Below, piece after piece: positions 38,669 through 57,788 of a DNA stretch of 64,000 nucleotides. The position numbers and the translations under genes are program-made. The notes under the pieces are model-generated. The model was not told the DNA's origin. It did not search any database and saw nothing but the letters and a program-made list of their open reading frames with translations. The stretch lies in IMG/VR virus record IMGVR_UViG_3300047472_000281, positions 6,334-70,333 of that record, one strand, 5' to 3'. The DNA is from a virus. Numbering within the stretch: the stretch's first letter is position 1; each line of letters begins with the position of its first letter.

Positions 38669-38858
38669 GGCCAGGGAAGAGCGCGACTATCTGATGGCGG
38701 TGGTGATCAAGCCGCTGATGGCCTTCAGTCTGCTCCAGGAGCGCGCCAAGCAGGCCGAGGGCCAGCGGGCCGACGGCGTGGTCGCCAAGGTAGACGCCTT
38801 CAATACGGCGGTCGAGCGCAAGCGGCGCTGGCTACCCTGGGCGCGCGACAAGCCCTGA
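38484..38858 (+). CDS. o-spanin (Rz1-like lipoprotein); start approximate
   Basis: Lipobox LSAC followed by Pro-rich segment; overlaps i-spanin in another frame. Confidence 0.7.
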   Translation: MRSGVRMISTLLMAATSLTLSACATRVVPLSPFVQLTTGDRTPAPNPTAPARPTLRPATSPEAREERDYLMAVVIKPLMAFSLLQERAKQAEGQRADGVVAKVDAFNTAVERKRRWLPWARDKP

Positions 38859-38885
38859 CCATATTGCTGACGTCAAGAACATGGT

Positions 38886-38917
38886 GCGCCCCTGGCTTCG
38901 GCCGGGGGCGCTTTTTT
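38886..38917 (+). terminator. Rho-independent terminator of late operon
   Basis: GCGCCCCTGGC-TTCG-GCCGGGGGCGC then TTTTTT at the convergence point. Confidence 0.85.
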
Positions 38918-38933
38918 GATTCCTGGGCGGTGG

Positions 38934-39251
38934 TTATCGCCTGACCCGGCCGGCTTGCGCCGCCGGCCGGCGGCTGCGGATATCATGCAGAAGCGAACGT
39001 CGGTGGCGAGCGGCGGCCGAACTTGCGAGGAATCGGCGCAACCAAGCATGCCCATTGCGCGTGATCGTGCAGGTACCCGTCCATTTGATGTCGGCCGTGG
39101 TGAAGTCCGCCTCGTCCTTGAGCGGATCCACATAGGCGTGGCGGGCTGGCCAGGTCAGGCTTGGGAACGTCAAGTCGACGGAGACCACTTCCACCCGCTC
39201 GCCGTTCACCGTCATGAGCGACCAAGAACCCGCCTGAACGGCGCCGGTCAT
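38934..39251 (-). CDS. Hypothetical protein
   Basis: ATGA coupling with upstream minus-strand gene. Confidence 0.55.
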   Translation of the reverse strand: MTGAVQAGSWSLMTVNGERVEVVSVDLTFPSLTWPARHAYVDPLKDEADFTTADIKWTGTCTITRNGHAWLRRFLASSAAARHRRSLLHDIRSRRPAAQAGRVRR

Positions 39252-39808
39252 AGGTCGCCGCCGCGCGGCCGCATGGCGAGGCGGGTCACGTTGGGGTCGT
39301 CGACTACCTTTAAGGCTTCACGCAGATAGGGCGTGTCGGCGGCGCGCCACCGGCCGGCCGCTTCGAACTCGTCCTGCAAGGCCATGTTCTTCTTGGCCCA
39401 GTCGATCGCTATCTCGGTCTTGCCGACCGAGGCGGGCTTGTGGATGACGACGATCTCGCCATCAGCCATCCAGCGGTCCAGACCCCAGAGGCCAGTTCCG
39501 CCGGGCGTGCCCTCGAACCGCCAGCCACGGCCCTCGCCGAGGGGCGTCCTTCGCTCCATCCAGTGCTCGCCGAGTCCCCTGACACGATCGGGGTAGAGGC
39601 ATTCCTTGGCGTCCAGGATCTTCATCCCAAGGCAGGTTCGCGCTCCGTCAGCGTCCCGCCCGAGCGCGGCGGGGTAATCCACGCCGATTTCGTTGACCTC
39701 TGCGCCGGTCAGCCAGACATAGTACGGGCGCTCCTGACCGCCCTCATCGGCCGCGGCGAGCAGTCGGCGGGTGTCCAATTCGGCCAGAAGCTGCTTCAGA
39801 ATGCTCAT
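39248..39808 (-). CDS. Hypothetical protein carrying terminase GpA-like motifs
   Basis: VVIHKPASVGKTE and GRWRAADTPYLREALKVVDDP. Confidence 0.6.
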   Translation of the reverse strand: MSILKQLLAELDTRRLLAAADEGGQERPYYVWLTGAEVNEIGVDYPAALGRDADGARTCLGMKILDAKECLYPDRVRGLGEHWMERRTPLGEGRGWRFEGTPGGTGLWGLDRWMADGEIVVIHKPASVGKTEIAIDWAKKNMALQDEFEAAGRWRAADTPYLREALKVVDDPNVTRLAMRPRGGDL

Positions 39809-40086
39809 GGCAGGCGCCCCGGAGGTCTCGGGACAGGGCGAACGCCCGTTGAGCCCTGGATGATGGCGTCGAGATCATGCTGGACGGCGGCCAGGCCACG
39901 CTGAAGGTGGTAGGCTAGGTCGCTACCGTCAGTCCCGTCGAGCTGCCGCCATGTGGTCATGAAGTTGAACTCACGGTCGGCGTTCTCGATGTGGATCGCG
40001 ATACCCTCAGGAAGGACGATGAGGGTGGTTGGGAATCGCGCCTTATCAGCCATCTCGGCCGCCGCTCGTAGCTGCAGGGTCCACAT
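39805..40086 (-). CDS. Hypothetical protein
   Basis: GGAGG SD; coupled. Confidence 0.6.
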   Translation of the reverse strand: MWTLQLRAAAEMADKARFPTTLIVLPEGIAIHIENADREFNFMTTWRQLDGTDGSDLAYHLQRGLAAVQHDLDAIIQGSTGVRPVPRPPGRLP

Positions 40087-40487
40087 CAGATCTCACCTCC
40101 AACAAAGGTCTCGTACAAGGCTAGCCGGGTGCGCTGGAGTTCCAGGGTTTGGTAGCCCTTCGCCGCGTCATCGTAGCTCTGGTTCAGGTCGATGATGGGC
40201 ATTGGAAAGCTGGACGCGCGAGCTTCGGCCAGATCAATAGGATCTCCCTCGCCCACGCCGACGATGGGCGGCGACAGGCGGGGATCGTATCCCAAGGCCT
40301 TGACCCAGCGGGCGCGCTCGCGATCCATCTGGCGCAGCGCTCGTATGGCCGGCGAGCCATAGATCCGCTCGAACACCTCGCGCGGGATGTGGTGCAGACG
40401 TCCGGTATGGCGGCTGATGTAGAAGTTCGCCGACGGCCGCCGCCAATACTTGCTCTTCACCCGGTGGTTGGCGGTGCGGAGACGCAT
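40086..40487 (-). CDS. Hypothetical protein
   Basis: TGATG coupling on both sides. Confidence 0.6.
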   Translation of the reverse strand: MRLRTANHRVKSKYWRRPSANFYISRHTGRLHHIPREVFERIYGSPAIRALRQMDRERARWVKALGYDPRLSPPIVGVGEGDPIDLAEARASSFPMPIIDLNQSYDDAAKGYQTLELQRTRLALYETFVGGEI

Positions 40488-40720
40488 CAGTCCGGCTCCC
40501 CGATGCCCAGCAGCCCGCGAAGGCTCGCCTGGATTTCATGCCGGCCCAAGCGCCGGGCCATGCTCATGGCCTTCGCAGCGGTGTTGGCCGAGGCCTCGTC
40601 GTCGAAGGTGATGCCGCCGAAAGGGCCAAGCTTGTCGCTAAGCCAGATCGTCCAGCGCTTGCCGTTGGGCTTGACGAAGAAGTCGTCGGCGATGGTGTCG
40701 TAGTGGACGAGCGCGACCAT
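40487..40720 (-). CDS. Hypothetical protein
   Basis: TGATG coupling. Confidence 0.6.
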   Translation of the reverse strand: MVALVHYDTIADDFFVKPNGKRWTIWLSDKLGPFGGITFDDEASANTAAKAMSMARRLGRHEIQASLRGLLGIGEPD

Positions 40721-40962
40721 CAGGCTTTCTCCGCTCGGACTTCGGCGATCATCGCCGAGAAAGCATCGGCCAGAATGCCAGGGCGGGGCTGGCCGGCCAT
40801 CGCCAACGCAAACTCGCGGAGCCCGGCCCTGACCATCGCTATATCGCGATCCTGCAGCGTGAATAGGAAGTCATCGACCAACTCGGCAGGAGTCTTGGCG
40901 CGCGCCATACCCTCGGCCGCAACTTCGAGCAGTCTTTCGCGCATTGTCTGTGGGTGAGCCAT
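40720..40962 (-). CDS. Hypothetical protein
   Basis: ATG at 40962 coupled to upstream stop. Confidence 0.55.
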   Translation of the reverse strand: MAHPQTMRERLLEVAAEGMARAKTPAELVDDFLFTLQDRDIAMVRAGLREFALAMAGQPRPGILADAFSAMIAEVRAEKA

Positions 40963-41483
40963 CAGACGGGCTCCCGGTCCATGACGACCGTGACGTCGTG
41001 GTTGTCGGTCCACAGCCAGCAGGCTGCGCGGGTGATGGCGGCGTCGACGACGGCGAAGAAGAAGCCCACGCCAGGATCGTTCAGCACGTCCAGCTGCTCG
41101 GGCTCGAGGCGCAGGCCATGATCGGGGAGGCGGAGCAGCTTCAGGATATGCCGCTCGCCCAGCGGCCGGCGGATCGGCGCCGACAGGCCGTCAGGATCCG
41201 CGCGGCGGGCCGCCAGCGCCTCTTCCTGCAGTTCCTTGGCCAGAGCCTCGACGGCCGTCTCGATCGACCACAGGGCGTCGCGCAGGGGATTGGGATAGCC
41301 GATCTTGGCTGAGCGCTCCCAGGACACCACGATGCTGTTGGTGGTCTCGCCGCGGCCGGCGTTGATCGCGTTGGCCAGGGCGGAGATGTGCCGGCGCTCC
41401 AGATTGATCGCGGTGCGCATCCCCCGGCTCTCTGGGCCGGTCAGGGGGCGGTCTCGGTGGCCGAACAGGGCGCGGGAGGTCAT
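40962..41483 (-). CDS. Hypothetical protein (repeat-array gene)
   Basis: Preceded by repeat copy with AAGGAAC SD. Confidence 0.7.
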   Translation of the reverse strand: MTSRALFGHRDRPLTGPESRGMRTAINLERRHISALANAINAGRGETTNSIVVSWERSAKIGYPNPLRDALWSIETAVEALAKELQEEALAARRADPDGLSAPIRRPLGERHILKLLRLPDHGLRLEPEQLDVLNDPGVGFFFAVVDAAITRAACWLWTDNHDVTVVMDREPV

Positions 41484-41533
41484 GGGCGGTGGTTCCTTGG
41501 TGAGCCGTGCTCCTGCGCGGCGTGGTTGCGATA

Positions 41534-41884
41534 TCAGAGGCGGCGCTTGGCCAGGGCGAGTCGTTCCATCCGGACAGCTTCACACCACCATGCGGCGCCG
41601 AGGATCCGTGTCGAGGGCGGCTCTTCAAGCCAGGCCTCCACCTCCGCCTGGGCGCCGGCGGTGTCGCCGTAATCCCCCTGGATCTGGAGGAAGATCAGAT
41701 AGGCGTCCTCGACCAGCACATAGGCCAGGGCCTTAGACCCGTTCGACGCGGCGATGCACGCCTGCAGAACGTCCAGATAGATCAGCGCGGCCTGCTGGGT
41801 GTTCAGGCCCATGGTCAGGGCGAGCTTGGCGATGCGCTCGTCGGTCGCATCGTTCTCGGGCGTGGCCTGCGAGGGGTTCGGCAT
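41534..41884 (-). CDS. Hypothetical protein (repeat-array gene)
   Basis: AAGGAG SD, ATG 41884. Confidence 0.65.
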   Translation of the reverse strand: MPNPSQATPENDATDERIAKLALTMGLNTQQAALIYLDVLQACIAASNGSKALAYVLVEDAYLIFLQIQGDYGDTAGAQAEVEAWLEEPPSTRILGAAWWCEAVRMERLALAKRRL

Positions 41885-41999
41885 AACGGCTCCTTGGCCT
41901 AGCAGAGTAGCACCGAGGGCGGATTGGGCCATAGGCTTCGCAGCTGACCCTTTCGCGTTTTGCGTCCACCCTTCACGCTGAAAGGGTGGCCTGAAAGGG

Positions 42000-42146
42000 T
42001 CAGCCATGGGCGAGCACTCCAAAGCCTTGCCGGGCAAGGGCTAGTAGGGGGCGAAGGGTGGCCAATCCGGCGCCCGAATAGAGCGGTTTTCCAGCCGCTT
42101 TCGCGGCCGCTCGGGCGTCACGGATAAGGGTCGATTTGGAAGACAT
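42000..42146 (-). CDS. Small basic hypothetical protein (repeat-array gene)
   Basis: TAAGGAG SD, ATG 42146. Confidence 0.5.
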   Translation of the reverse strand: MSSKSTLIRDARAAAKAAGKPLYSGAGLATLRPLLALARQGFGVLAHG

Positions 42147-42174
42147 GGGCGTCGTCTCCTTAGGCGAGGGCCGA

Positions 42175-43092
42175 TTAGGCCGGAGGGTTGTTGGGAGGGG
42201 CGGTGTCGCTGAAGGGCAGGGGCGTCCAGCCGGCGAACCAGTCGTCGTCGAGACCACCAAGGCCGAAGGGCCCAGCGAGCCCCCAGCCCTCGTCAAGACC
42301 TTCATCAACACCGTCGGTGTCGATGCCTGGGTGACGGATCACGACCCAGAGGCCGCCAAAGCGATCGAGATCGGCGCGCCCGGGGATTTCCGGCTTGAAG
42401 CGGGCCAGGACCGGCGTCCTGTTCTTCAGGGCCTTCGACATCGGGCGCAGAGCGTCGAGCAGTGGACCTTCCCATGTTGCCCGGCCATGCTCGCGCATCT
42501 TCTCGTCGATTGCCAGGCGGCAGGACCGCAGAGCGTTGGGCTCGGAGTCCTGCAGGTCGACGTCCTGGTCGCCCAACATCAGGCGATTGACGTTGTGGTT
42601 CATGACCAAGCGCCAGCGATAGGTCGTGCCGTACTTGGCATTGAGCCGGATATTGGCCTCGTCCAAGTAGTCGAGGCGGGCCTTGTCGGCTTCCAGCGCC
42701 GCGCACCTAGCCTCGGCGGCGACGGCGCGTGCGACCTGCTCCTCGCAGCGCAGGGCCATGTCCTCGGCGTTTTGGCGCCACGTCATGGGCCAGAGAGGCC
42801 CACAGCCATTGGGGCAGGGCTCGGTCTTGTTGTCGCCAGCCGTGATCGCGCCCGACTGGGCGTGGAGCACGTTGCGGACCAGGACGAACGAGCACTTGGC
42901 GCACCGCATCATGCCGGGGACGACATCGGCTCTGGCCGCCGAGCTGTCGCCCGACAAGGCTTGGGCCGCAACCACTAGCAGCGAGGCCGTTTCCTGAGCG
43001 TAGGGCGTGGCGCCGATCACTTCGCCCCGCATGAAGCGGTCCGCTAGCTCCAAGAGGCGCGGCGTGGGGTCAACTGTTTGGGGGGAAGACAT
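42175..43092 (-). CDS. Mosaic hypothetical protein with CxxC...CPNGC Zn motif
   Basis: Repeat and SD upstream; CAKC, EPCPNGCGPLW, DKARLDYL. Confidence 0.75.
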   Translation of the reverse strand: MSSPQTVDPTPRLLELADRFMRGEVIGATPYAQETASLLVVAAQALSGDSSAARADVVPGMMRCAKCSFVLVRNVLHAQSGAITAGDNKTEPCPNGCGPLWPMTWRQNAEDMALRCEEQVARAVAAEARCAALEADKARLDYLDEANIRLNAKYGTTYRWRLVMNHNVNRLMLGDQDVDLQDSEPNALRSCRLAIDEKMREHGRATWEGPLLDALRPMSKALKNRTPVLARFKPEIPGRADLDRFGGLWVVIRHPGIDTDGVDEGLDEGWGLAGPFGLGGLDDDWFAGWTPLPFSDTAPPNNPPA

Positions 43093-43177
43093 GGCGGTGG
43101 TTCCTTCGTAAGCCGCGCCTCATGCGCGGGGCTGATTGGGCTGTAGGCTTCAGGTCGAGGCTGATTGGGCTGCAGGG

Positions 43178-43603
43178 TCAGGGCCAGCCGCTCTTCATCA
43201 TACGCCGGCCGGGCGGAAACGGCGGCTTGACCAGGGTCAGATCGATTTGCACCGTGTTGGCGGTTTCACGCCTGACGGCCGATCCCAGCGGCGCACCGGT
43301 CAGATTGTTGACGATGATCGCGGGCTGAGCGACGACTGCGCCCGACTCGATATCCTCGGTGCTCCAGCCGTTCGCAGCGGCCAGGGACCAGAGTGCAGCC
43401 ACCCGCCGCGCGGCTTGGACGCGCTCATCTTGCGTCAGCAGGTAGGAATAGGCAGTGGTGGCCAAACCGAGAAAGCGGCCACCGACCTTGATCCGAACGC
43501 TGCGCCACCGGTCCCATTTCGCCGGCTTGGCCGCTAGCGGCTCGTTGTCGCCGCCGCGCTTTCCGATGGTGTTCGCCTCTTCGATCGCAAAGGGTGTGAC
43601 CAT
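43178..43603 (-). CDS. Hypothetical protein (repeat-array gene)
   Basis: ATG 43603 after repeat SD. Confidence 0.65.
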   Translation of the reverse strand: MVTPFAIEEANTIGKRGGDNEPLAAKPAKWDRWRSVRIKVGGRFLGLATTAYSYLLTQDERVQAARRVAALWSLAAANGWSTEDIESGAVVAQPAIIVNNLTGAPLGSAVRRETANTVQIDLTLVKPPFPPGRRMMKSGWP

Positions 43604-43662
43604 GGCGGTTGGTTCCTTGTGTTGCCGCGCCACATGCGCGGGGGCTGATTGGGTCGCAGGGT

Positions 43663-44844
43663 TCAGGCGAGAGCGGGCTGGCGCGGCAGGACGTCGCCGT
43701 CGAACCACTCTAGGTGGGCCATGGCGGCGTCCTTCTTGGACTTCGCTGCCAGCAAGTCTTCAAACCGCTGGATCACGGCCTCGGGCGTTGGGAACGTGTT
43801 CTCCAGACCATGATGAGCCAGGATGATCTCGCGGGCCGCAACGACCTGCACCGCCTCGTCATAGGTTGGGGCGCGCAGAGGCCAGCCCTTCACGTACCGC
43901 AAGCCCTTGGGCAGACTGGCCTCGAGGGCTTGGCGTTCGGCGCCGCGCACCTTGCCGACGGCCAGGCCTGCCGCGAGGGCCGGTGAGATCAGGTGCGGCG
44001 ACACATCGCCTAGCCAGCGCGTGGGCTGAAAGCTGAAGGTCGAGTTTGCCTCGACGCCGACCAGGTGACGATAGACCGCGTGGTTGTCCTCGCTGCGCGA
44101 CGAGGCTTCCTGATCACGGACCTTTTGCAGCACGCAGTAGGAGCAGCCCAGGCGAGACGTCCCGTGAACGCTGTAGGCAACGTGAAGGGGCAGGGCGTGG
44201 CGTTCATGATAGGCGAACACTTCGCCCAGCAGAACCTCGGCCGCTGGATGCCAGGACATCAGCGTCGTTCCGTCGCGCTTGGACCAACGAGGCTCGGGCT
44301 TCGACACCGGCGCCAAGCTGCGCGCGGGGCTCTCTTCGCGCCGGATCCCGATGACAGAGATGATCACGCGGCCGGGGAAAGCCTTCTGGAGGGCGGGCGA
44401 AATCACCTGCTGCTTGAGCTCGGCCGTGCAGAAGCGGAGACTAGCGCTCGACCAGGGTCCAATCAGGTTGAACACCTCCAAGGCGGCGTACCGGCGTTTA
44501 CCCTCGGCGAAGCGGGCCTCCCAGCGCGAAATCATGTCGTGGCGGCCATGGCGAACCACCATCAGCGGAACGCCCAGCTGCTCGGCGATGCGCTCGCACA
44601 TCGGCAGGCTTTCCTTCCACTCGATCCTGCCCAGGTCGGCGTGGATTGCCACGCGGTCCTCTTTCGGGTGGCCCAGCATGTCCAGGAGCCGGTTCGCGGA
44701 ATGCGCGGCGACCGAGGAGTCCTTGCCACCGCTCAGGCTGAAGGCAACGACGGCACCGGCTCGGATGGCCGCCAGGACCTCGGTGTCGACCGCGATCCCG
44801 ACCTCGCGGAACATCTCGATCTCTTCGGCGGTGGTCATCGTCAT
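43663..44844 (-). CDS. Phosphoadenosine phosphosulfate reductase family protein (PP-loop)
   Basis: SLSGGKDS, RFCTAELK, GIRREES..R, SRLGCSYC; ATG 44844 after repeat SD. Confidence 0.88.
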   Translation of the reverse strand: MTMTTAEEIEMFREVGIAVDTEVLAAIRAGAVVAFSLSGGKDSSVAAHSANRLLDMLGHPKEDRVAIHADLGRIEWKESLPMCERIAEQLGVPLMVVRHGRHDMISRWEARFAEGKRRYAALEVFNLIGPWSSASLRFCTAELKQQVISPALQKAFPGRVIISVIGIRREESPARSLAPVSKPEPRWSKRDGTTLMSWHPAAEVLLGEVFAYHERHALPLHVAYSVHGTSRLGCSYCVLQKVRDQEASSRSEDNHAVYRHLVGVEANSTFSFQPTRWLGDVSPHLISPALAAGLAVGKVRGAERQALEASLPKGLRYVKGWPLRAPTYDEAVQVVAAREIILAHHGLENTFPTPEAVIQRFEDLLAAKSKKDAAMAHLEWFDGDVLPRQPALA

Positions 44845-44899
44845 AGGGTCGTTCCTTGCTGGCCCGCGCCACATGCGCGGGCTGATTGATCTGGTGGGT

Positions 44900-45133
44900 C
44901 TACTGGCAGGCGACGTCGATGCTGGAGCGCAGCTCTTCGAAGTGGCCGGGCAGATCGTCCTGCAGGGTGGTGATCGCGTCCTGCATCTTGATTCCGCTGT
45001 CGGCGCCCTGAAGGCTCTCAGGGAGGTTTTCGAACGCGGCCTGTTCAGCGGCGAGCACCTCTTCGACAAGGGTCTCGGCCTGATTGATCAGCTCGGCGGC
45101 TTGCTGGAGCATCTTGCGGCGGTCGTTGTTCAT
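44900..45133 (-). CDS. Small acidic helical phage protein
   Basis: MNNDRRK...EQAAFENLPESLQ; ATG 45133 after repeat SD. Confidence 0.75.
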   Translation of the reverse strand: MNNDRRKMLQQAAELINQAETLVEEVLAAEQAAFENLPESLQGADSGIKMQDAITTLQDDLPGHFEELRSSIDVACQ

Positions 45134-45186
45134 GGCTTCGTTCCTTGGTGACCCACGCCATGCGCGGGCTGATTGAGCTTTAGGGC

Positions 45187-45984
45187 TTAGGCGGCCAGGT
45201 CGCGGCGCACCCCGATGAAGACTGCACCACGCGGCGCGCCATCCCTGGTCTTGCCGCAAAGCCGCACCGTGCCCAGTCGGCCGGGCAGATTGCCCCGTTG
45301 GGTCCAGAGCGACGCGGCCTGAGCGCGCGGCATGGCGACCGGCGCCGAGAACAGGCGCCCGGCATACTCAAGGGTGACAGACCCGACAGCGTCTGGATCG
45401 TCCAGCCGAGCGCGAACAGACCTGATAACGCCCTCTAGCTCGCCGGTCGGCTTCAGCTTGACCGCCTCGCAACGCGTGGAAGAGGCGTTGCCCTCGCGAT
45501 AACCCCACGTCCCGGCCTTCAGAACCAAGCCCTCGCCATTGCGGGCGACCACCTCGGCGAACGCCTCGTTGACGCTCTCAAGGGAGCGATGACAGAGGGC
45601 GGGCGACACCTGGACGACATCTTGAGCGCCAAGGGACGCCACAGCCTGCCGCACCTTCGCCAGACGATCCACAAAGGCCATGGAAGAGCCGGCCAGGTCG
45701 AAAACCATGAAGCGCCAGCCAGAGGGGAGAGCACCCGAACCCATGAAGGCGGATTGCGCGGCCTCAAAGCCGCCGGGGGCGGTCAGTTCGCCATGGTGAC
45801 CCCACAGAGCGCGCTGGGAGAGGAAGGCGCGGGCCTCCGGATTGGGAAGGGGAAGGCCCTCTTTCGTATGCAGGCCCATAGAGGGGCAGACCAGGCCGCC
45901 GACTCCATCGTGCTTTTCCTGCGACCAGCAAGGGAAGGGGAGGCGGGAGAGATCGGCCGTAACCGGGTGCATCGGCTTGAGCAT
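45187..45984 (-). CDS. Minimal ATP-dependent DNA ligase-like protein
   Basis: EKHDG, HGEL, FMVFDL, EGLVLK, KLKP motifs plus OB-like tail. Confidence 0.82.
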   Translation of the reverse strand: MLKPMHPVTADLSRLPFPCWSQEKHDGVGGLVCPSMGLHTKEGLPLPNPEARAFLSQRALWGHHGELTAPGGFEAAQSAFMGSGALPSGWRFMVFDLAGSSMAFVDRLAKVRQAVASLGAQDVVQVSPALCHRSLESVNEAFAEVVARNGEGLVLKAGTWGYREGNASSTRCEAVKLKPTGELEGVIRSVRARLDDPDAVGSVTLEYAGRLFSAPVAMPRAQAASLWTQRGNLPGRLGTVRLCGKTRDGAPRGAVFIGVRRDLAA

Positions 45985-46055
45985 GGCGGGCGTTCCTTGG
46001 TGACCCGCGCCACATGCGCGGGAGAGGCTGATTAAGGGGGCGGGTTAGGCGGTGG

Positions 46056-46391
46056 TCAATCTTCCTCGTGTTCTTCTTGGGCGGTGGTTTCGTCATCGCC
46101 CTCCGGCTGCTCTATCCCGGCGTCTTCGTGCGACACGAACACCCACGCCATGACATAACCGCCATCACTGCCCTCGGACACGATCGCGTCGCCGTCGACT
46201 TCGACTTCGCCTTCGCTGAGAAAGCCGGTGTTGCCGGCGCCATCCGCATAGGCGGACAGGTGCGGTTCGGTCTGGCGCTGATGCTCAGCGAAGACGGGAA
46301 CGGCGCGCCCGAAATTCAGGCCGGCTTCAATCAGCGCCAGTAATTGGTCTTCTAAGCTCGGGGCGGTGGTGCTCTGGACGGTCGCGGACAT
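46056..46391 (-). CDS. Highly acidic hypothetical protein
   Basis: EGEVEVDGDAIVSEGSDGGYVMAWVFV; acidic tail; ATG 46391 after repeat SD. Confidence 0.75.
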   Translation of the reverse strand: MSATVQSTTAPSLEDQLLALIEAGLNFGRAVPVFAEHQRQTEPHLSAYADGAGNTGFLSEGEVEVDGDAIVSEGSDGGYVMAWVFVSHEDAGIEQPEGDDETTAQEEHEED

Positions 46392-46443
46392 GGTTGCGTT
46401 CCTTGAAGGCCCACGCCACATGCGCGGGGCTGGCCATACAGGC

Positions 46444-46842
46444 CTAGAGCTGTTCCGAAGGGAAATTCGGCGTTTCGTTCGAAGCGAGGGCGGCTTGCAA
46501 CTGCTCCACGAGAGCCTTGTTGTCCTCGGTGTTTTCGTAGGTCCCGTCGGCGATGCCGGATTCAAGGTCTTCCAGGTAGGACTGCGCAGCGTCGCTAAGG
46601 CGGTCGAGGACCGAACGCCGGACCAGAACGAACGGGTCTGACGGTATGGCGGGCGGATCGTACTGCGACACCGACCCGCCGGTAACCTTCATGATGTTCC
46701 GCCCACGCTTGCGAAGGCAAATCTCGTTTCCGAGTTCACCAGCATGCTCGAAGTTGTAGGCCTCGACGTCGCCGCTCCAAGCGCCGGGGTTGCCGGCGTT
46801 CGTGCAGTAGAGAACCTCAACATGATATCGGCCTTTGGGCAT
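46444..46842 (-). CDS. Hypothetical protein (repeat-array gene)
   Basis: ATG 46842 after repeat SD. Confidence 0.7.
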   Translation of the reverse strand: MPKGRYHVEVLYCTNAGNPGAWSGDVEAYNFEHAGELGNEICLRKRGRNIMKVTGGSVSQYDPPAIPSDPFVLVRRSVLDRLSDAAQSYLEDLESGIADGTYENTEDNKALVEQLQAALASNETPNFPSEQL

Positions 46843-46922
46843 GGTCTCGTTCCTTGCTGGCCCGCGCCACATGCGAGGGCTGATTGGCTCATATGGTCGC
46901 CGGGCTGATTGGCCTGGCGGGT

Positions 46923-48116
46923 CTAGGCGGCCAGACGCAGCGCCACGGCTCGCGGGGCGTCCAGCGTGACGCAGGTCCCGTCACTCGCGGTGAGGCGGAA
47001 GGCGAAGCCCCCGGCCAGGCGCCGGGCGGTGTAGCGGACTAGGCCGCCCTCCGGCGCCGTGGCGTGGCGCTCGACCAGCAACAGCAAGGCGCGGGCCTTG
47101 TGCTTCGCCTCGGTCGATGCGCGTTCGAAGGCCGCGACGATTCCCGCCAGATCGAAGACGACGGCCGCTCCGTCGAGGTCATGCATGTTGGTCGGCGCCG
47201 TGGCTCCAGGAACGGCCGTCGCTTTGGCGACGATGACGGGCGGAAGTTCGAACGCTGCGACAGCGGCCGCACGGCGCGACGCCAGAAAATCGCATGCGCC
47301 GTCCGCGACGCGCAGATGGCCTGAGCCGTCCATTTCATAGGCGATGCCGGGGCTATGGGCTCGGCCTCGGAAGATGCGCCCGCCTTGGGCGGAAATCTCC
47401 GCCTCGCGCCAAAACAGGCGCGGCGGGACGATTCGGGCTTCGAGATTGGCCGCCTCATTGGCGTCGCCGGCGCCGTAGCGGCCGCCAGGGGGCGGCGTGA
47501 ACGTCTCGCCGGTGTTCTCGTCATAGATCGCCAACAGAGCGGCCATCGGACGCACACGGGCGAGGTGTTGCCAATCGGGCGAGTCGGCCATCACGCCACA
47601 CGACGTGCGAACCTGCATGGCGCGCAGCTCCACCCCGGCCATGGCCTCCAGCTGTCGGGCATACTCATGGCGAGCGCGGAGGCGGCGCAGCGTGTCGCCA
47701 GCCGCTAGGGCGGCCGCCCAGCGGGTCTGGGGCTTCCCGCCGTGATAGACGACGCCACAGACGCGGGTCGCCGTGCCATCGGCCCAGACGCACCAGAACG
47801 CGCCGGTGGCGGCCTTGTTGCGGGGAGGGCGGGAAAACAGCGCGGCTAAGTCATCCTCGACCCTCTCAGCCCGCGCCGTGCGCTTCTTGGCGGCTACGGG
47901 AGCGGCTTGCTCGCTGGGAGCGCCAAGGGCGGCCGAAAGAGGCGCGGAGGGGCGCAAGGTCGCACCGATGATGATTTGCCGCTGCAGGGCGCGGGCCAAG
48001 GCGTGCGCGGCGGCTTCATAGGCCGAGGCGGCGCCGGAAGTGCGCGCCAGGTCATAGAGCGCCAGGGCGGCTTGGGGGGAGGTGGCGCCCAGAGGGGCGG
48101 CTAGGGTGGCGATCAT
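46923..48116 (-). CDS. Ala-rich hypothetical protein (repeat-array gene)
   Basis: 397-aa ORF directly after repeat copy at 48123. Confidence 0.7.
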   Translation of the reverse strand: MIATLAAPLGATSPQAALALYDLARTSGAASAYEAAAHALARALQRQIIIGATLRPSAPLSAALGAPSEQAAPVAAKKRTARAERVEDDLAALFSRPPRNKAATGAFWCVWADGTATRVCGVVYHGGKPQTRWAAALAAGDTLRRLRARHEYARQLEAMAGVELRAMQVRTSCGVMADSPDWQHLARVRPMAALLAIYDENTGETFTPPPGGRYGAGDANEAANLEARIVPPRLFWREAEISAQGGRIFRGRAHSPGIAYEMDGSGHLRVADGACDFLASRRAAAVAAFELPPVIVAKATAVPGATAPTNMHDLDGAAVVFDLAGIVAAFERASTEAKHKARALLLLVERHATAPEGGLVRYTARRLAGGFAFRLTASDGTCVTLDAPRAVALRLAA

Positions 48117-48204
48117 TGGTCAGTTCCGTTTCAGGCCACGCCGCATGCGTGGCGGTTAGAACGTCGAGCCGTTCGGCGAGGCCCTGCAGCGCTAGGCGGA
48201 AAGG

Positions 48205-48594
48205 CTAGTTCAGGGCGGGCGGGTTCATGGGCCAAGTGGACCAATCTCCCGCGTCGCCGCTTTTGGCGTTGTCTCGGTCCTGCCAGGCGCGGGCGGCGTC
48301 CTCAGTAGGGAAGGGGCCAATCACAGGCGTCAGCAGTTCGGGTCTGAAGACAACCCAACCAGCGGCGGCTTCTTGGAACACAAACACATATCCCTTGATG
48401 GTCTCGCCGCCGACCAGCTCGCCCGGGCCGCAATAGCGCTCAGCGAGGGCTTTGGCCGCGGCCATGTGATTAGCGCTCTGCGAAAGGTTGTGATCGTAGG
48501 GCACAACGACGCGGCTATCCTGCTGGCGCGCCACGATGCGCGCGCTCTTGGTATTCGTCGCACCTAAAAAGCTGGTCTCAATCGCTGATCGCAT
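48205..48594 (-). CDS. Hypothetical phage protein, first gene of repeat array
   Basis: AIETSFLGATNTKSARI...NHMAAAKALA...KGYVFVF; ATG 48594 after repeat SD. Confidence 0.75.
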   Translation of the reverse strand: MRSAIETSFLGATNTKSARIVARQQDSRVVVPYDHNLSQSANHMAAAKALAERYCGPGELVGGETIKGYVFVFQEAAAGWVVFRPELLTPVIGPFPTEDAARAWQDRDNAKSGDAGDWSTWPMNPPALN

Positions 48595-48742
48595 TTGGTC
48601 GTTCCTTGCTGAACCACGCCGCATGCGTGGTCGGGATGTTGGCGCCATCCTGACTTCTCCGAGTTGGTGAGGTCAGAACCTCGAGCCTTTCATGATGCGC
48701 CTCGACCAAATGCGAGACGTCCAGGACGGCGCCGACAGCCGA

Positions 48743-48770
48743 AACATAGGCGCGGGCGATGCTGCGTCAA
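48743..48770 (-). promoter_or_regulatory. Predicted sigma70-type promoter of the repeat array
   Basis: Minus-strand TTGACG-16 nt-TATGTT with A/T-rich upstream and near-inverted repeat TGCTGCG...CGTAGCA. Confidence 0.6.
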
Positions 48771-49001
48771 CAAGAAAATGCAGTGCGTAGCAAGTATTCA
48801 ACAGCTCAGGCTCCGGGCGCTGACGCGATAGCGCCCGGTAATGCAGTAACCGTCTGGTCACGCGGCGGGTCCTTCCTGCCGGGAATGAATATGCGGGGAA
48901 AAGACCCGCCGGTCTAAACTGAAAAATATTTAGAAACGATGGTGTAGTGTAGGGTGGATATTGTCGCGGAAAAATCCGGCGGCGCGGCGTCGTCGCCCTT
49001 G

Positions 49002-49039
49002 TGGAATATTCCAATGCGGCATATATTCCAGTCTGGAAT
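49002..49039. promoter_or_regulatory. Palindromic operator-like sites before XRE gene
   Basis: TGGAATATTCCA (49002-49013) and ATTCCAGTCTGGAAT (49025-49039). Confidence 0.6.
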
Positions 49040-49061
49040 TATCCAAGTTGGAGCAACGAAA

Positions 49062-49376
49062 ATGACCGACGTGAAGTATGAGGATTGGCGGCCGGCTCTG
49101 TCGCCTGAGGAGGAAGCCCAGGTCGCCGAAGGCGTAGTGGCGCTGAAGGCGCGTGTTTCCTTGCTGCGCACGCTGCGCGAGCGCATCGGTCTAACTCAGG
49201 CCGAATTGGCCGAAATCCTTGAGACCTCCCAGTCGAACGTCTCCAAGATCGAAGCAAAAGACGACCCATACGTCTCGACGCTCAGGAAAGTCATCGAGGC
49301 GAAGGGCGGAAAGCTGAAGGTGATCGCGACCTTCCCTGAGGGCGACATCGAGATTCCACTGTTCTTGTCGGTTTAG
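49062..49376 (+). CDS. XRE-family HTH protein (HigA antitoxin-like)
   Basis: LRTLRERIGLTQAELAEILETSQSNVSKIE...STLRKVIEAKGGKLKVIATFP. Confidence 0.85.
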   Translation: MTDVKYEDWRPALSPEEEAQVAEGVVALKARVSLLRTLRERIGLTQAELAEILETSQSNVSKIEAKDDPYVSTLRKVIEAKGGKLKVIATFPEGDIEIPLFLSV

Positions 49377-49382
49377 CCGGCG

Positions 49383-49649
49383 CTATCGGCGCCTACGCAG
49401 CGGCCGGGTCGGCGTGCCTGGCGATGGGCCGTAGTGAAAGATGACCTTGTGCCCGCAGCCTGGCGTGGGGCAGGTCGGGCTGCGATCGGACAGGTCGAAG
49501 CCCTCGCCGTATTTGGCGATGATCGCGTCGAGATCCACCGGCCGGAAGAACTGGCACTTTGCGCACATGACGTTGACGACGGCGGTCGACGCCTTGAGCG
49601 CGCCGACCGATTGCGCCCAGGTTGGCAGGTAGGCGGGGTTCTTTCCCAT
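49383..49649 (-). CDS. Small Zn-finger protein, likely SOS-regulated
   Basis: CAKC...CPTPGC; GGAG SD before ATG 49649; LexA box upstream. Confidence 0.7.
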   Translation of the reverse strand: MGKNPAYLPTWAQSVGALKASTAVVNVMCAKCQFFRPVDLDAIIAKYGEGFDLSDRSPTCPTPGCGHKVIFHYGPSPGTPTRPLRRRR

Positions 49650-49662
49650 GGTCAGCTCCAGC

Positions 49663-49677
49663 GAACGGAGCCGGAAC
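49663..49677. promoter_or_regulatory. Alphaproteobacterial LexA (SOS) box
   Basis: GAAC-GGAGCCG-GAAC, i.e. GTTC-N7-GTTC on the minus strand. Confidence 0.7.
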
Positions 49678-49681
49678 ATTA

Positions 49682-49931
49682 TTCGGGACTATTCCGGGAC
49701 TTCTAGTCCCGAACCACCCCTTTTTTCGCCATTTGTTCCCACTTTCGACCACGTTTGAAGTGGCCGTTTTTGGGAGAAAAGTGTAGTGAAAACAAAGAGA
49801 AAGGTGGTGCCGGATGAGGGGATTGAACCCCCGACCTTCGGTTTACAAAACCGCGCTGTGAAGTGGCGCAAAGCCAGGCTCAATAAGGTGTTGAAGGCTG
49901 CGGTCTCGGAGTGGTTCGGGAGTATTCCGGG
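49682..49931. other. attP: core is 3' half of tRNA-Thr(UGU) (49805-49854, minus strand) flanked by arm-type repeats
   Basis: Minus strand GCGGTTTTGTAAACCGAAGGTCGGGGGTTCAATCCCCTCATCCGGCACCA; TTCGGGASTATTCCGGG at 49682 and 49915; directly downstream of integrase. Confidence 0.9.
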
Positions 49932-49976
49932 GAAGTCTGCAAGCGCGGCGGGCCCAAAAAGGACCTCGGTGGGGCC

Positions 49977-51110
49977 TTAGCCCGTCGCCTGGCCGTCGTC
50001 GACCACCTGGGCGGCCGCTACCGGAGCCGCAACGACTTCGTCTTCCAGGGCCGAGCGGAGATCGCTGGAGAGCACGTGCGCGTAGCGCTGCGAACTCTGG
50101 ATCGTGGCGTGGCCCAGGAGCGCCTGGACGGCCTTCAGGTTCTTGGTGCGCTTCAGAACGGTCGAGCCGGCGTGGTGGCGCGCGCCGTGGATGCGTCGGG
50201 CGCCGGTGAGCCCCGCGGCGTCCGCCGCCTTGCTGACGCGGTATTCGATCTGGTTGTACGTGTAGCAGACCAGCTTCTTGCCCTGCTGGTGGAACCACAG
50301 GTGTTCGAGGCCGGCCTCGACGGCGCAGGAGTGGCGGGCGGCCAGGGCGCGGCCGTGGTCCAGGCGAAGGGGAATGACCAGCAGGACGTCGCGCTTGCGG
50401 CCCTTCTGCAGGGTCAGCGTCGGATCCTCGGGGTCGAGGTTCAGCGCCGAGGGCGGGAACAGCAGCTCGCCCAGGCGCAGGCCATAGGTCAGCAGCATGT
50501 CGACCGCGAGCGCCATGTCTTCCTCGGCCGCGGCGATCCATCCTGTCCGCTCGGCCGGACTGTAGAGCCGGCTCAGGCCGCGCGGCTCCCGCAGACGCAG
50601 GACGCGCCAGTCGATATCGGGCAGGCCATGCGGGGTCTCGGCCGGCGTCCAGTGCGTTCTGGCGCGGCGGAGGATCGGCCGGAGGGTTTCGATGACGTCC
50701 CGGTTCACGGTCGAGTTTGACGGCTGATAGACCAGCGCGTCGTCGGCATGGCCGCGCTTCAGCGTCTGTTTCTTCCGGTCTTCGATCGCGGTGGCGACGA
50801 TGTCCTGGCCGATCGAGCCCAGTGTTTTGTTCTTGCCGATCAGCGCCACCAGGTTGTGAACCCTGCGCTCGACATCGCGATTGTCGCCGCGATGGATGCC
50901 GACCTCTTCCCACCAACGGCCGGCGGCTATGTCCAAGGTCATCAGCGAGACCGCGCCCAACTGGCCGGTGGCGGCCGCCATGCGCTTCTTGGTCTCTACG
51001 GCCTCGGCTGCACGACGCGTAGCCTGACCGGTCGATCCATGAAACCGCGTCCCGCCGATGACGAAGTCGTACTGCCAGAAGCGGCTTTTGGTCGGTTTGT
51101 AGACGGACAC
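49977..51110 (-). CDS. Tyrosine integrase
   Basis: GLRLGE, HGARH, LGH, RYAH catalytic residues; N-terminal arm-binding region. Confidence 0.95.
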   Translation of the reverse strand: MSVYKPTKSRFWQYDFVIGGTRFHGSTGQATRRAAEAVETKKRMAAATGQLGAVSLMTLDIAAGRWWEEVGIHRGDNRDVERRVHNLVALIGKNKTLGSIGQDIVATAIEDRKKQTLKRGHADDALVYQPSNSTVNRDVIETLRPILRRARTHWTPAETPHGLPDIDWRVLRLREPRGLSRLYSPAERTGWIAAAEEDMALAVDMLLTYGLRLGELLFPPSALNLDPEDPTLTLQKGRKRDVLLVIPLRLDHGRALAARHSCAVEAGLEHLWFHQQGKKLVCYTYNQIEYRVSKAADAAGLTGARRIHGARHHAGSTVLKRTKNLKAVQALLGHATIQSSQRYAHVLSSDLRSALEDEVVAAPVAAAQVVDDGQATG

Positions 51111-53013: not shown

Positions 53014-53591
53014 GCCGCCACCGCCTCGGCCCGCTCGGCGATGATCGCAGCAGTGAAGTGTGGCCAGATCTCAGACCAGAACCCCTCGGCTTGCGGGTCG
53101 TACTTCTCCCACTTGTCGTCGTAGAGGTCGTGTCGCGACATAAGGCAATTGGACTCGCTGTCCCATTGGGCGAGGAAGTGCTGGCAGTTAAAGGCGTCGC
53201 CCCGCGCGCTCTCGATCGCATCGAACAGCTGTCTGGCGTCGGCGCGCGTCAGACCATCATGGCGGCGCCGTTCAACCACCAAGCCGCGCGCCTTGTCCGC
53301 TGCCTCGCTAACGTCCAGCGGCGTCCAGAGCCGCAAGCCCATCATCTTCTTCATGGCGTAGTCGAAATCGAGGCTCGCCAGGAAGTCGCGCCAGTCGCCG
53401 CCGATGTGCGACCAACAAAAGCCGAACGATCCGTAATCGGAGATCACGCTGACGTTGACCCAGCGGCGCTCGCCGGAGGTCAGCTTGTCGTCCGTGACCA
53501 CGCCATGGTCGACATAGAGGTAAGCCCAGGCCCAACCGTTCCGGACGGTGTAGCGGGTGGCAGGTGAGGTGTTGACGGTCAGTTTGGTCAT
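53010..53591 (-). CDS. Hypothetical phage protein
   Basis: ISDYGSFGFCW...FW.EIWPHF; coupled. Confidence 0.75.
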   Translation of the reverse strand: MTKLTVNTSPATRYTVRNGWAWAYLYVDHGVVTDDKLTSGERRWVNVSVISDYGSFGFCWSHIGGDWRDFLASLDFDYAMKKMMGLRLWTPLDVSEAADKARGLVVERRRHDGLTRADARQLFDAIESARGDAFNCQHFLAQWDSESNCLMSRHDLYDDKWEKYDPQAEGFWSEIWPHFTAAIIAERAEAVAA

Positions 53592-57687: not shown

Positions 57688-57698
57688 GGGGGGCGTCC

Positions 57699-57788
57699 TC
57701 AAGCGGCGGTGGCGATGAAATGGGCGAGCAGTCCGAACGCCAGCAGCACGGCCAGGCAGAGCAGGTTGTGATGCGGCGTTCGGAGCAT
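57699..57788 (-). CDS. 29-aa hydrophobic peptide
   Basis: MLRTPHHNLLCLAVLLAFGLLAHFIATAA fills operon gap. Confidence 0.4.
   Translation of the reverse strand: MLRTPHHNLLCLAVLLAFGLLAHFIATAA

Follow-up and report, generated by a model that had tools for sequence, protein, structure and literature searches.

Ten successive early genes of one minus-strand phage operon are each preceded by a copy of a hairpin repeat, and the explanation that we favour, at roughly even chances, is that the repeat works at the mRNA level as a module associated with gene starts, which may also be a point of cassette exchange. Coordinates refer to the window, a stretch of 64,000 nt of IMGVR_UViG_3300047472_000281, the complete phage record having 70,333 bases; the phage is described as a temperate siphovirus of Caulobacter-type hosts. 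A covariance model run over the whole 70,333-base record detected 10 copies (E values of 8e-15 to 5e-7), 10/10 on the minus strand, which span window positions 41492-48644 and in every case lie shortly upstream of a gene start. The unit is composed, in order, of CAATCAG, a G+C stem of 7 bp closed by the loop ATGYG, a spacer of 5 nt, and AAGGAAC, and the start codon follows 4-8 nt past its end. When the pattern formed by the 3' arm and the Shine-Dalgarno sequence (SD) was searched allowing up to 2 mismatches, 16 matches were obtained against 6.0 +/- 2.5 in shuffled sequences, and 0 of 100 shuffles reached 16. The matches with 0 or 1 mismatch numbered 10, all of them on the minus strand (41492-48619). 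The repeat is genuine and far above chance expectation. Its copies, including degenerate ones, are the following:

48601-48644, minus strand: unit 1, lying in the leader ahead of the first gene (129 aa, start 48594); type II, with stem ACCACGC/GCGTGGT and loop ATGCG; covariance-model match of 52.6 bits.
48123-48169, minus strand: unit 2, ahead of a conserved gene of 397 aa (start 48116); stem GCCACGC/GCGTGGC, loop ATGCG, SD variant ACGGAAC; orthologous units occur at L010:14286 and L020:151, where the variable pair is A.C and C-G, respectively.
46849-46892, minus strand: unit 3, before a 132-aa gene (start 46842); stem CCCTCGC/GCGCGGG.
46398-46442, minus strand: unit 4, before a 111-aa gene (start 46391); variable pair G.U, loop ATGTG, no CAATCAG box.
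45992-46040, minus strand: unit 5, before an ATP-dependent DNA ligase gene (45190-45984); G-C stem, loop ATGTG, 5 extra nt between CAATCAG and the stem.
45140-45181, minus strand: unit 6, before a 77-aa gene (start 45133); variable pair G.U, 3-nt loop ATG.
44851-44894, minus strand: unit 7, before a PAPS-reductase-like gene (43666-44844; Pfam PF01507, 5.8e-10); consensus copy CCCGCGC ATGTG GCGCGGG and best covariance-model match, 65.6 bits.
43612-43657, minus strand: unit 8, before a 141-aa gene (start 43603); C.C at the outermost pair.
43100-43144, minus strand: unit 9, before a 305-aa gene (start 43092); loop ATGAG, with an orphan upstream half-unit directly upstream (43154-43185).
41492-41534, minus strand: unit 10, before a conserved 173-aa gene (start 41483); 4-nt loop AGGA, C.A stem mismatch; covariance-model match of 41.2 bits; in the Root343 ortholog, L015:1627, the variable pair and the mismatched pair are each C-G.
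41888-42195, minus strand: two degenerate units, before a 48-aa gene (start 42146) and a 116-aa gene (start 41884), recognized from the sequence, the SD-anchored listing and the repeat family; an AATC-type box and AAGGAG are retained, and the first has only its 5' arm left.

Eight of these copies had been named in a sequence-only reading, and all eight are present with the coordinates, arms and loops (ATGAG, ATGTG, ATGCG and ATG) that it reported, the variable pair being G-C at 43100, 43612, 44851 and 45992, A-U at 48123 and 48601, and G.U at 45140 and 46398. The nearly constant distance from hairpin to SD was also confirmed, with 5 nt between the stem and AAGGAAC in 10/10 window copies. The two copies that it overlooked, however, weaken its central point, the covariation of that pair: at 46849-46892 the pair said to covary is a U.C mismatch, and the C.A of 41492-41534 is a wobble pair on the plus strand only. 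The copies, loops, spacing and non-chance nature of the repeat stand; the covariation as then argued is weakened, and the strand asymmetry does not hold.

The same unit was found in just two related phages, a prophage of Caulobacter sp. Root343 and an IMG/VR contig, which brings the total to 29 copies in three phages; the tallies of stem, loop and spacing are based on these (7 pairs x 29 = 203 stem cells). All the copies, both in the record (10/10) and in the three phages (29/29), lie on the gene strand in intergenic gaps. The stem is separated from the SD by 5 nt in 26/29 copies and by 6 nt in 3/29, and from the downstream start codon by 16-21 nt (18 nt in 15/29), while its distance to the upstream stop codon varies from 4 to 59 nt. 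The unit is thus fixed in position relative to the downstream start, not the upstream stop, and for that reason the downstream cistron is its most likely target. Over the 29 copies, information content is close to or at 2 bits for five stem pairs, for the loop A, T/G, G and final G, and for GGAAC, against 0.2-1.4 bits for the 5-nt spacer and the upstream leader.

The surroundings of the array include the following features:

48743-48770, minus strand: sigma-70-like promoter match, the sole one in 38500-49500, about 100 nt upstream of unit 1 (consensus match only).
49002-49045, no strand assigned: TGGAAT/ATTCCA palindromes, A+T-rich, adjoining the XRE gene start.
49062-49376, plus strand: XRE-family HTH regulator (Pfam HTH_3, 9.1e-8; PHROG transcriptional regulator families), divergent from the hairpin-bearing operon.
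49980-51110: tyrosine integrase, about 1.3 kb from the start of the array.
38886-38911, no strand assigned: strong terminator-like hairpin (11 bp, with a T run) at the junction of the minus-strand operon and the plus-strand late genes.

The canonical terminators of the phage have a T tract, which the repeat is without. One promoter-like site was found upstream of unit 1 and none within the units, and a promoter reading fails. A terminator reading fails too, no terminator signal being present in the unit; when the nine terminator-like sites were compared by position, none coincided with a unit. A CsrA reading fails as well. A search for a candidate RNA-binding protein found none. The model of the 397-aa protein, conserved in all three phages, was of mediocre quality (pLDDT 68.7) and gave no PDB match at E <= 0.001, and the protein at 53591-54025, put forward earlier as an "ASCH" candidate, had no Pfam match at E <= 0.01.

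Pairing of the stem is preserved. The 203 stem cells comprise 187 Watson-Crick and 5 G.U pairs, 3 A.C combinations and 8 true mismatches, and the paired fraction (94.6%) exceeds that of shuffles (85.8%; 0/500 match it) and of every slid register (<=65%). RNAalifold independently predicts the identical 7 pairs, at -13.67 kcal/mol. In three of the seven pairs, both sides have changed with pairing kept: pair 22-34, in mid-stem, is GC in 14 copies, AU in 5, GU in 3 and CG in 2, being unpaired in the other five (4 true mismatches and 1 A.C), and pair 19-37 is CG in 18, GC in 6, AU in 1 and GU in 1. By our own reading of the flanking orthology, double changes also separate orthologous units: those ahead of the 397-aa gene differ as A-U versus C-G, those ahead of the ligase gene as G-C versus A-U, and those ahead of the 173-aa gene as G-C versus C-G. 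In L010:8338-8383 a matched insertion of one base per arm lengthens the stem by one pair, and the stem is intact whether the loop has 3 nt (1 copy), 4 nt (3) or 5 nt (25). Once shared ancestry is allowed for, our count of independent double changes falls to about 8, of which 6 are complementary (p of roughly 0.02 if chance is 1/3). The covariation is suggestive, not overwhelming. Folding of the 91-nt units is no better than that of shuffled sequences (z of -0.55 to +1.34), and the hairpin is within the minimum-energy fold in 6/10 of them. It had been proposed earlier that the inverted repeat is a folded stem and not two protein half-sites, and this part of the interpretation survives, given the double-sided changes, the matched insertion, the 3-5-nt loops and the single orientation in 29/29 copies.

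The same alignment bears on a duplex-DNA site, in which a 17-19-bp palindrome would be bound by a dimeric phage regulator, such as one of two XRE proteins, silencing or roadblocking the accessory operon like stoperators or the inverted repeats of Clusters O and EG. We consider such an operator rather unlikely, and less likely than an mRNA-level module. In its favor, five of the seven stem pairs are nearly invariant in 29 copies from three phages, a constraint more usual where duplex DNA is read base by base than in an RNA stem; 5/29 copies tolerate a mismatch at the central pair; and an XRE regulator gene adjoins the operon. The layout of 7 + 5 + 7 also resembles the 7 + 3 + 7 repeat of Cluster O mycobacteriophages, which the authors assign to dimeric DNA-binding proteins (PMC4351075), and Pope et al. 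favored DNA-binding proteins for the Cluster K ESAS (PMC3203893). Both the 17-18-bp repeats of Cluster O and those of the Microbacterium Cluster EG phages are described with invariant 7-bp arms, a short center and many copies (PMC4351075, PMC7302621), the latter being located in short intergenic gaps, 14-22 bp before start codons, and conserved despite differing flanks (PMC7302621). On the other hand, the loops of 3, 4 and 5 nt place the half-sites at different distances, and one copy has a base inserted in each arm, the two being complementary; a rigid dimer would tolerate neither. Most double changes are complementary. The conserved A-T-G-Y-G center is asymmetric and in one orientation in 29/29 copies, none of which lies in a gene or in the promoter region, whereas the Cluster O sites are unoriented, a third of them inside genes and few if any in rearrangements (PMC4351075); here loop length is variable and the sites mark rearrangement points. 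Like stoperators, the units are many sites in short intergenic gaps of a temperate phage, oriented with transcription, but stoperators are 13-bp asymmetric duplex sites, genome-wide and repressor-bound, and the unit has a palindromic core, keeps its pairing and is confined to one operon. As repressor operators, the A+T-rich palindromes beside the XRE gene, whose sequence differs from that of the G+C hairpin, are better candidates than the hairpin.

The earlier argument for RNA had been that G-U pairs work on the coding strand only. With 5 G.U against 3 A.C among the 203 cells of 29 copies, the asymmetry is not significant (stem paired in 94.6% of cells on the coding strand versus 93.6% on the other). 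The A-U stems are not independent compensatory events: all five carry the ATGCG loop and so form one subfamily; none of the G-C stems of the window or L010 has this loop. Since G.T wobble is tolerated in DNA hairpins too, wobble cannot in any case separate RNA from sense-strand single-stranded DNA.

That tolerance would suit a single-stranded DNA hairpin, either a recombination site of the integron attC kind for the nearby tyrosine integrase or an N4-like hairpin promoter, as would the array of promoterless variable cassettes in one orientation with a hairpin at each boundary, and the short distance from the integrase to the array. We regard this as very improbable. An attC site is defined by paired inner and outer boxes and extrahelical bases, which the stem of just 7 bp is without; the integrase adjoins a tRNA-like attP core, as ordinary phage integrases do; and the fixed distance to the SD would be left unexplained. 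No virion or single-subunit RNA polymerase was found, and the earlier suggestion of a single-stranded DNA promoter is not supported. The three ORFs of >1300 aa encode a tape measure protein, a tail protein and a 1482-aa protein that is unassigned and matches no polymerase.

The leading example of the sequence-only reading, a boxB/nut-like site of processive antitermination read by an N-like protein, fares worst, and we judge it the most improbable. What the unit shares with lambda-type nut/boxB is a short G+C hairpin whose pentaloop is conserved, placed within the early-left transcript of a temperate phage; the first copy is in the leader. The boxB loop, however, is a purine-rich GNRA-like pentaloop, unlike A-U-G-Y-G, and ten sites are present in the operon instead of one. 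The boxA partner is also missing: boxA-like motifs gave 11 matches against 16.3 expected by chance, none of them on the minus strand in 41000-49000. Moreover, none of the nine terminator-like sites lies at a unit, and L010 keeps its units although the first gene product is absent there.

Rearrangements among the three phages fall at the units. In the array, 6/9 ends of the long homology blocks shared by the window and L010 coincide with a unit; gene 1 is missing from L010, where one hybrid unit is left; the 86/93-aa gene is before the ligase gene in Root343 and after it in L010; and orphan half-units are found at 43154-43185 and 46901-46926. It is possible, though quite unlikely in our view, that the repeat is a mere by-product of this traffic, an intergenic segment copied with accessory genes or spread by recombination or gene conversion, with a plain ribosome binding site and a hairpin of no regulatory role. 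The block ends, cassette differences and half-units are consistent with it, as are the homogenized loops of Root343 (ATGCG in 7/7 five-nt loops), the different subtypes at orthologous positions (type I at window 45992; type II, A-U with loop ATGCG, at L010:11905) and the two array genes that, in the SD-anchored listing, work without a hairpin. A precedent is the shuffling at the promoter-early stem-loop (PeSL) motifs of T4-like phages, which are likewise small composite intergenic motifs with a stem-loop, repeated before variable accessory ORFs, where insertions, deletions and replacements among close relatives occur (PMC2839356, PMC4122927). PeSLs, however, contain an early promoter and function as promoter/terminator composites in lytic myoviruses; here the unit has neither signal, and it is the ribosome binding site that accompanies the hairpin as its conserved partner. 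Against a by-product, the spacer, the leader and the SD-to-start gap have widely diverged while stem, loop and GGAAC are kept, which points to selection on the conserved parts, and pairing has been kept through double changes and a matched insertion. A hairpin is also found at the equivalent place in the more distant provirus L135, whose neighboring protein is only 37% identical: two genes there, including the ortholog of the 397-aa gene, are preceded by a hairpin based on CCCGC/GCGGG, at a distance of 7-8 nt from GGAG.

The unit resembles the unexplained start-associated repeats of actinobacteriophages, the start-associated sequences (SAS) and extended SAS (ESAS) of Cluster K mycobacteriophages, with similar motifs in Microbacterium Cluster EF phages (PMC3203893, PMC7302621). 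Both systems have an over-conserved motif in the ribosome-binding position a few bases before the ATG, with conserved bases unable to pair with 16S rRNA and an inverted repeat directly upstream; 10-19 copies occur in one orientation before non-structural genes only, often of different families. The sequences are unrelated and the hosts differ (Actinobacteria there, Alphaproteobacteria here). ESAS arms are of 17 bp with a spacer of 4-13 bp, against 7-nt arms and a 3-5-nt loop here, and the authors state that departures from ESAS do not preserve RNA pairing (PMC3203893), whereas the double changes here do.

In the mRNA-level explanation, the repeat would be a portable module placed between the cistrons of a single leftward early operon. 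Transcribed within a polycistronic mRNA, it would fold into a G+C hairpin of 7 bp, followed after 5 nt by an extended SD (C-AAGGAAC) and after 16-21 nt by the start codon. Judging from the sequence, its most plausible putative role is in translational control or as an endoribonuclease or stability site. A trans-acting factor could read the hairpin and the GGAAC box, bringing the translation or processing of some ten accessory genes under joint control; alternatively, the hairpin could be a cis element that confers stability and insulation from the 5' side. In either case each gene would bring its own ribosome entry site, and the repeated module of about 45-65 nt may provide the homology by which gene cassettes are gained, lost and reordered.

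Ten copies of a repeated unit are found on the minus strand between positions 48644 and 41492, each directly before a gene, and they constitute a real, strongly non-random, oriented module in which a hairpin is joined to a ribosome-binding (SD) sequence. Read 5' to 3', the unit with its surroundings comprises an upstream stop codon, a C-rich, G-poor leader that often contains CAATCAG, a stem-loop, 5 nt, the sequence AAGGAAC, another 4–8 nt, and the start codon. The stem is a 7-bp G+C helix (consensus CCCGCGC/GCGCGGG) and the loop is ATGYG. A pattern of the 3' arm plus SD gave 16 matches at two mismatches or fewer, versus 6.0 ± 2.5 in shuffled sequences, and a covariance model built from the copies matched the whole record at exactly 10 sites, every one of them on the minus strand. 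Two array genes (starts at 42146 and 41884) are preceded by degenerate units whose hairpin is incomplete. All of the copies listed in the sequence-only reading are present, and two had been overlooked: 46849, with U·C at the position described as covarying, and 41492, with C·A, a wobble only on the other strand. An E-value search of positions 38000–64000 against Rfam returned no family for the unit, the sole match being a chance-level miRNA at 51549.

The source record, of which the window covers bases 6334–70333, is an IMG/VR virus of 70,333 bases with direct terminal repeats and a G+C content of ~66%. Its left part encodes, on the plus strand, a helicase, a replication protein, terminase, portal, head, tape measure, and tail proteins, and its right part, on the minus strand, a tyrosine integrase (49980–51110), two XRE-type regulators (49062–49376 and 57274–57702), a methyltransferase, an exonuclease-like protein, and many unknowns. 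Adjoining the integrase gene is a 48-nt tRNA-like stretch (49805–49852, minus-strand sense), which shares 94% identity with a portion of the annotated tRNA-Thr genes of Rhizobium phages and corresponds to the 3' part of a tRNA; the ARAGORN tRNA scan found no complete tRNA. This stretch is probably the attP core, and the phage therefore appears to be temperate. It was also the sole match of positions 42001–50000 in a blastn search of phage GenBank sequences, which yielded no relatives. Two separate plus-strand ORFs, 3331–4299 and 8384–10369, match overlapping parts of the profile of the terminase large subunit family phrog_15 (E = 4e-51 and 1.8e-141, respectively); judging from these matches, the former, which lies ~4 kb upstream of the full gene, could represent a further, partial terminase-like gene. 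The 354-aa protein encoded at 54510–55571 (minus strand) is a full-length member of DUF5131 (Pfam E = 1.3e-86; phrog_2045 E = 6.4e-102), a family conserved in phages and of unknown function.

IMG/VR, a set with one genome for each prokaryote species, and metagenome contigs were scanned for the pattern, and only two multi-copy carriers besides the window phage were recovered:

Other phages carrying multiple copies of the unit
IMGVR_UViG_3300028584_000650 (L010): 11 copies
Caulobacter sp. Root343 prophage (L015 and L020, together IMG/VR contig 2643221642_000002): 8 copies

With the filters off, a model search brought the total to 29 copies in the three phages (alignment A2). In the Root343 genome (5.4 Mb), a 7-kb stretch of one strand holds all 8 matches (150 of 8198 candidates scored), and among 151 Caulobacteraceae genomes, with 41 candidates scored in each, the only one matched was Root343 itself. 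Loci with a single match in the pattern scans were rejected, as their model scores (at most 32 bits in one group and 21.2 bits in another) were owed to the pattern. A protein scan seeded with the 173-aa protein of the array found no further relatives, and one seeded with the ligase found the Root343 prophage only; in a PAPS-reductase relative (L009) the genes overlap and the unit is absent. The unit is restricted to a single early operon, and its carriers form a small clade of Caulobacter-type temperate phages. The more distantly related provirus L135/G154 encodes a protein 37% identical to the 397-aa protein of the array, and the gene for this homologue and the next gene are each preceded by a hairpin with the same basal pairs (CCCGC/GCGGG), a different 6-nt apex, and a position 7–8 nt before GGAG. 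Just upstream of this variant hairpin, at ~3255–3290 of L135 (plus strand), three close direct repeats of an 8-nt word with GGAAC precede the gene at 3329; the window units likewise have GGAAC as their invariant box.

In 29/29 copies AAGGAAC lies 4–8 nt before the start codon, oriented with the gene and within one early operon. The near-constant distance between hairpin and SD reported from the sequence was borne out, being 5 nt in 26 copies and 6 nt in three, and the stem is 16–21 nt from the start codon. The distance from the upstream stop to the stem, approximate because it was measured to the nearest long ORF end, ranges from 4 to 59 nt. As the stem is locked to the SD and start codon but variable relative to the upstream stop, the hairpin goes with the initiation region of the downstream gene rather than with the end of the upstream one. 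The ATG of the loop is in frame with the downstream gene in three of nine window copies, which is the chance rate.

The loops of the 29 copies are ATGTG, ATGCG, ATGAG, ATTCG, ATG, AGGA, and AGGC; 25 copies have a loop of 5 nt, three of 4 nt, and one of 3 nt. A boxB/nut site has a purine-rich, GNRA-like pentaloop on a 5-bp stem and a boxA shortly upstream, and it occurs once in an operon. The proposal that the hairpin acts in boxB-like antitermination, the lead example of the sequence-only reading, is hardly credible, since these loops sit on a 7-bp stem and are not GNRA-like, boxA-like matches number 11 versus 16.3 expected, the minus strand of the array has none of them, and ten sites fall in one operon. 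Information content is near 2 bits at five stem pairs, at most loop positions, and in GGAAC, and 0.2–1.4 bits in the spacer and leader. This constraint at the level of sequence suggests a reader, either a protein or another RNA, and it is the best argument for the unit being a duplex-DNA site, which we nevertheless consider unlikely. A dimer-bound duplex operator of the Cluster O type is difficult to reconcile with a centre of 3, 4, or 5 nt, which makes the half-site spacing vary, with the copy that has an 8-bp arm, and with the single orientation of all 29 copies. More natural operators are the A+T-rich overlapping TGGAAT/ATTCCA palindromes at 49002–49045, 17–60 nt from the start codon of the divergent XRE gene; these are likely the operators of the lysogeny switch, and they are unrelated to the G+C hairpin.

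Selection for pairing of the stem is likely, but not proven. RNAalifold predicted the same seven pairs unprompted. In A2, which leans toward structure through having been fitted to the covariance model, 94.6% of 203 cells are paired versus 85.8% in column shuffles, a level reached by 0 of 500 shuffles, and slid registers are at most 65% paired. Two of the seven pairs are invariant, two vary by mismatches only, and three change on both sides:

Composition of the three stem pairs that change on both sides (A2 columns)
Pair 19-37: CG 18, GC 6, AU 1, GU 1, other 3
Pair 21-35: CG 27, GC 1, UG 1
Pair 22-34: GC 14, AU 5, GU 3, CG 2, other 5

In addition, the copy at L010:8338 has one added base per arm, and the two are mutually complementary, giving an 8-bp stem. 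The copies are related to one another. The ATGCG loop accompanies every one of the five A-U stems and is absent from the G-C stems of the window and L010, which places the A-U stems in one subfamily. Loop type is homogenised per genome: all seven five-nt loops of the Root343 prophage are ATGCG, and the window and L010 mix ATGTG, ATGCG, and ATGAG, with A-U stems always on ATGCG. Estimated from the orthology of flanking genes, there were ~8 independent double changes, 6 of them complementary (roughly p = 0.02 against a one-in-three chance). The further argument that G-U pairs mark the coding strand did not survive the larger alignment, where 5 G·U stand against 3 A·C and 8 other mismatches, so that the stem is 94.6% paired on the coding strand versus 93.6% on the other. 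Moreover, since G·T wobble forms in DNA too, wobble pairs cannot tell RNA from sense-strand DNA. It is the setting of the stem that is strand-specific: all 29 copies share one orientation, the loop is conserved and asymmetric, and the flanks differ. The 91-nt units are no more structured than shuffles (z −0.55 to +1.34) and the hairpin appears in 6 of 10 minimum-energy folds; it is predicted to be a local stable stem in otherwise open RNA.

Several other readings of the unit were rejected. As an intrinsic terminator it lacks a T run, the tail after the stem being NCANCAAGGAAC, and none of the nine terminator-like sites in 38500–49500 coincides with a unit; the clear phage terminator at 38886–38911 has a T run. 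No promoter-like site lies within the units by an E. coli-type sigma-70 consensus, a weak test, whose sole match in 38500–49500 is at 48770–48743 (minus strand), upstream of unit 1. Patterns for Caulobacter housekeeping, sigma-54, ECF, SOS-box, and CcrM sites were compared by eye, and none fits in register. An N4-type hairpin promoter is read by a virion-encapsidated giant RNA polymerase, and none of the 56 proteins compared with family profiles (40 with PHROGs, 27 with Pfam), which come from the record beyond its first 6333 bases, matched an RNA polymerase family; of the three ORFs of >1300 aa, one encodes a tape measure protein, one a tail protein, and one an unassigned 1482-aa protein without polymerase match. 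The ssDNA promoter offered as an alternative in the sequence-only reading finds no footing here, and a function as an ssDNA site of any kind seems very improbable. A CsrA/RsmA site was discarded because PF02599 is absent from phage and host, with no matches in the sequence sets G000, G001 (the Root343 genome), and G002 and with matches in control genomes.

The hairpin and the invariant GGAAC could together be an RNA operator, through which one RNA-binding protein or endoribonuclease of phage or host would read ~10 cistrons on one transcript; we put this forward tentatively. Among the candidate readers is the 397-aa protein (46926–48116, minus strand), which is conserved across the three phages with units and for which public assemblies contain 12 more homologues, representing at least eight additional relatives. 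No Pfam or PHROG family includes it, and its AlphaFold model (pLDDT 68.7, pTM 0.38) had no Foldseek match in the PDB at E ≤ 0.001. The protein at 53591–54025, previously suggested as an ASCH-domain candidate, has no Pfam match.

The units also coincide with differences in gene content between the phages. Long homology between the window and L010 falls into five blocks:

Long homology blocks shared with L010 (window positions)
48932-48600
48153-47371
47012-46840
46074-45126
42201-40718

Six of the nine judgeable block ends are at a unit. L010 is without gene 1, the 129-aa gene after unit 1, and retains one hybrid unit, the left flank of which matches that of window unit 1 and the right flank that of unit 2. 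The three phages share a backbone of the 397-aa gene, a 111/165/160-aa gene, the ligase, a 48-aa gene, and the 173-aa gene, between which the small genes differ; an 86/93-aa gene precedes the ligase in Root343 and follows it in L010. Orphan upstream halves of the unit (43154–43185 and 46901–46926, minus-strand sense) immediately precede units 9 and 3; they consist of the C-rich leader and CAATCAGCC with no complete hairpin, and they resemble scars left by unequal exchange from unit to unit. Because phages commonly have mosaic joints at their gene boundaries, the block ends are consistent with exchange at units without proving it. That the unit is just a by-product of such cassette traffic we regard as rather improbable.

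Over-conserved start-associated repeats are known from the early regions of several actinobacteriophage clusters (PMC3203893, PMC7302621), and the closest described system is the SAS/ESAS of Cluster K together with similar Microbacterium phage motifs. SAS are defined by a conserved asymmetric motif in RBS position, 3–7 bp before the start, in one orientation and at non-structural genes only; the Cluster K consensus is 13 bp, and the ESAS are 17-bp imperfect inverted repeats with a 4–13-bp spacer, for which an RNA hairpin was judged unlikely (PMC3203893). Our units resemble them in sitting at the RBS position, in keeping to one orientation and to non-structural genes, and in having an inverted repeat upstream, but have another sequence, 7-nt arms, a 3–5-nt loop, and a support for pairing that ESAS, as there described, lack; the unit is hence an analogue and not a member. 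The PeSL of T4-like phages likewise is a stem-loop beside variable ORFs, at positions where related phages differ by indels (PMC2839356, PMC4122927), but it carries an early promoter, which the weak E. coli-type consensus scan did not find within units. The 17-bp repeats of Cluster O also have 7-bp arms, but are unoriented and often within genes (PMC4351075). The unit is not described for Caulobacter phages in the literature searched, which comprised papers apart from their supplementary files.

On balance, we give an even chance to the unit being an mRNA-level, start-associated element that doubles as a point of cassette exchange. This proteobacterial example differs from the actinobacteriophage repeats in that pairing is kept, the element is locked to the downstream start codon, and it appears to mark points of cassette exchange. 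Because the unit is also found in a prophage of a cultured strain of Caulobacter, a genus with good genetics, the question of RNA versus DNA and any effect on translation or mRNA stability are directly testable. If the unit is a self-contained, insulated translation start, it would be a ready-made expression part for G+C-rich hosts. If the RNA operator is true, these phages would have a post-transcriptional regulon inside an operon, which captured genes would join by recombining in behind a unit, and it would offer the first way into the mechanism of start-associated repeats, a puzzle in actinobacteriophages since 2011.
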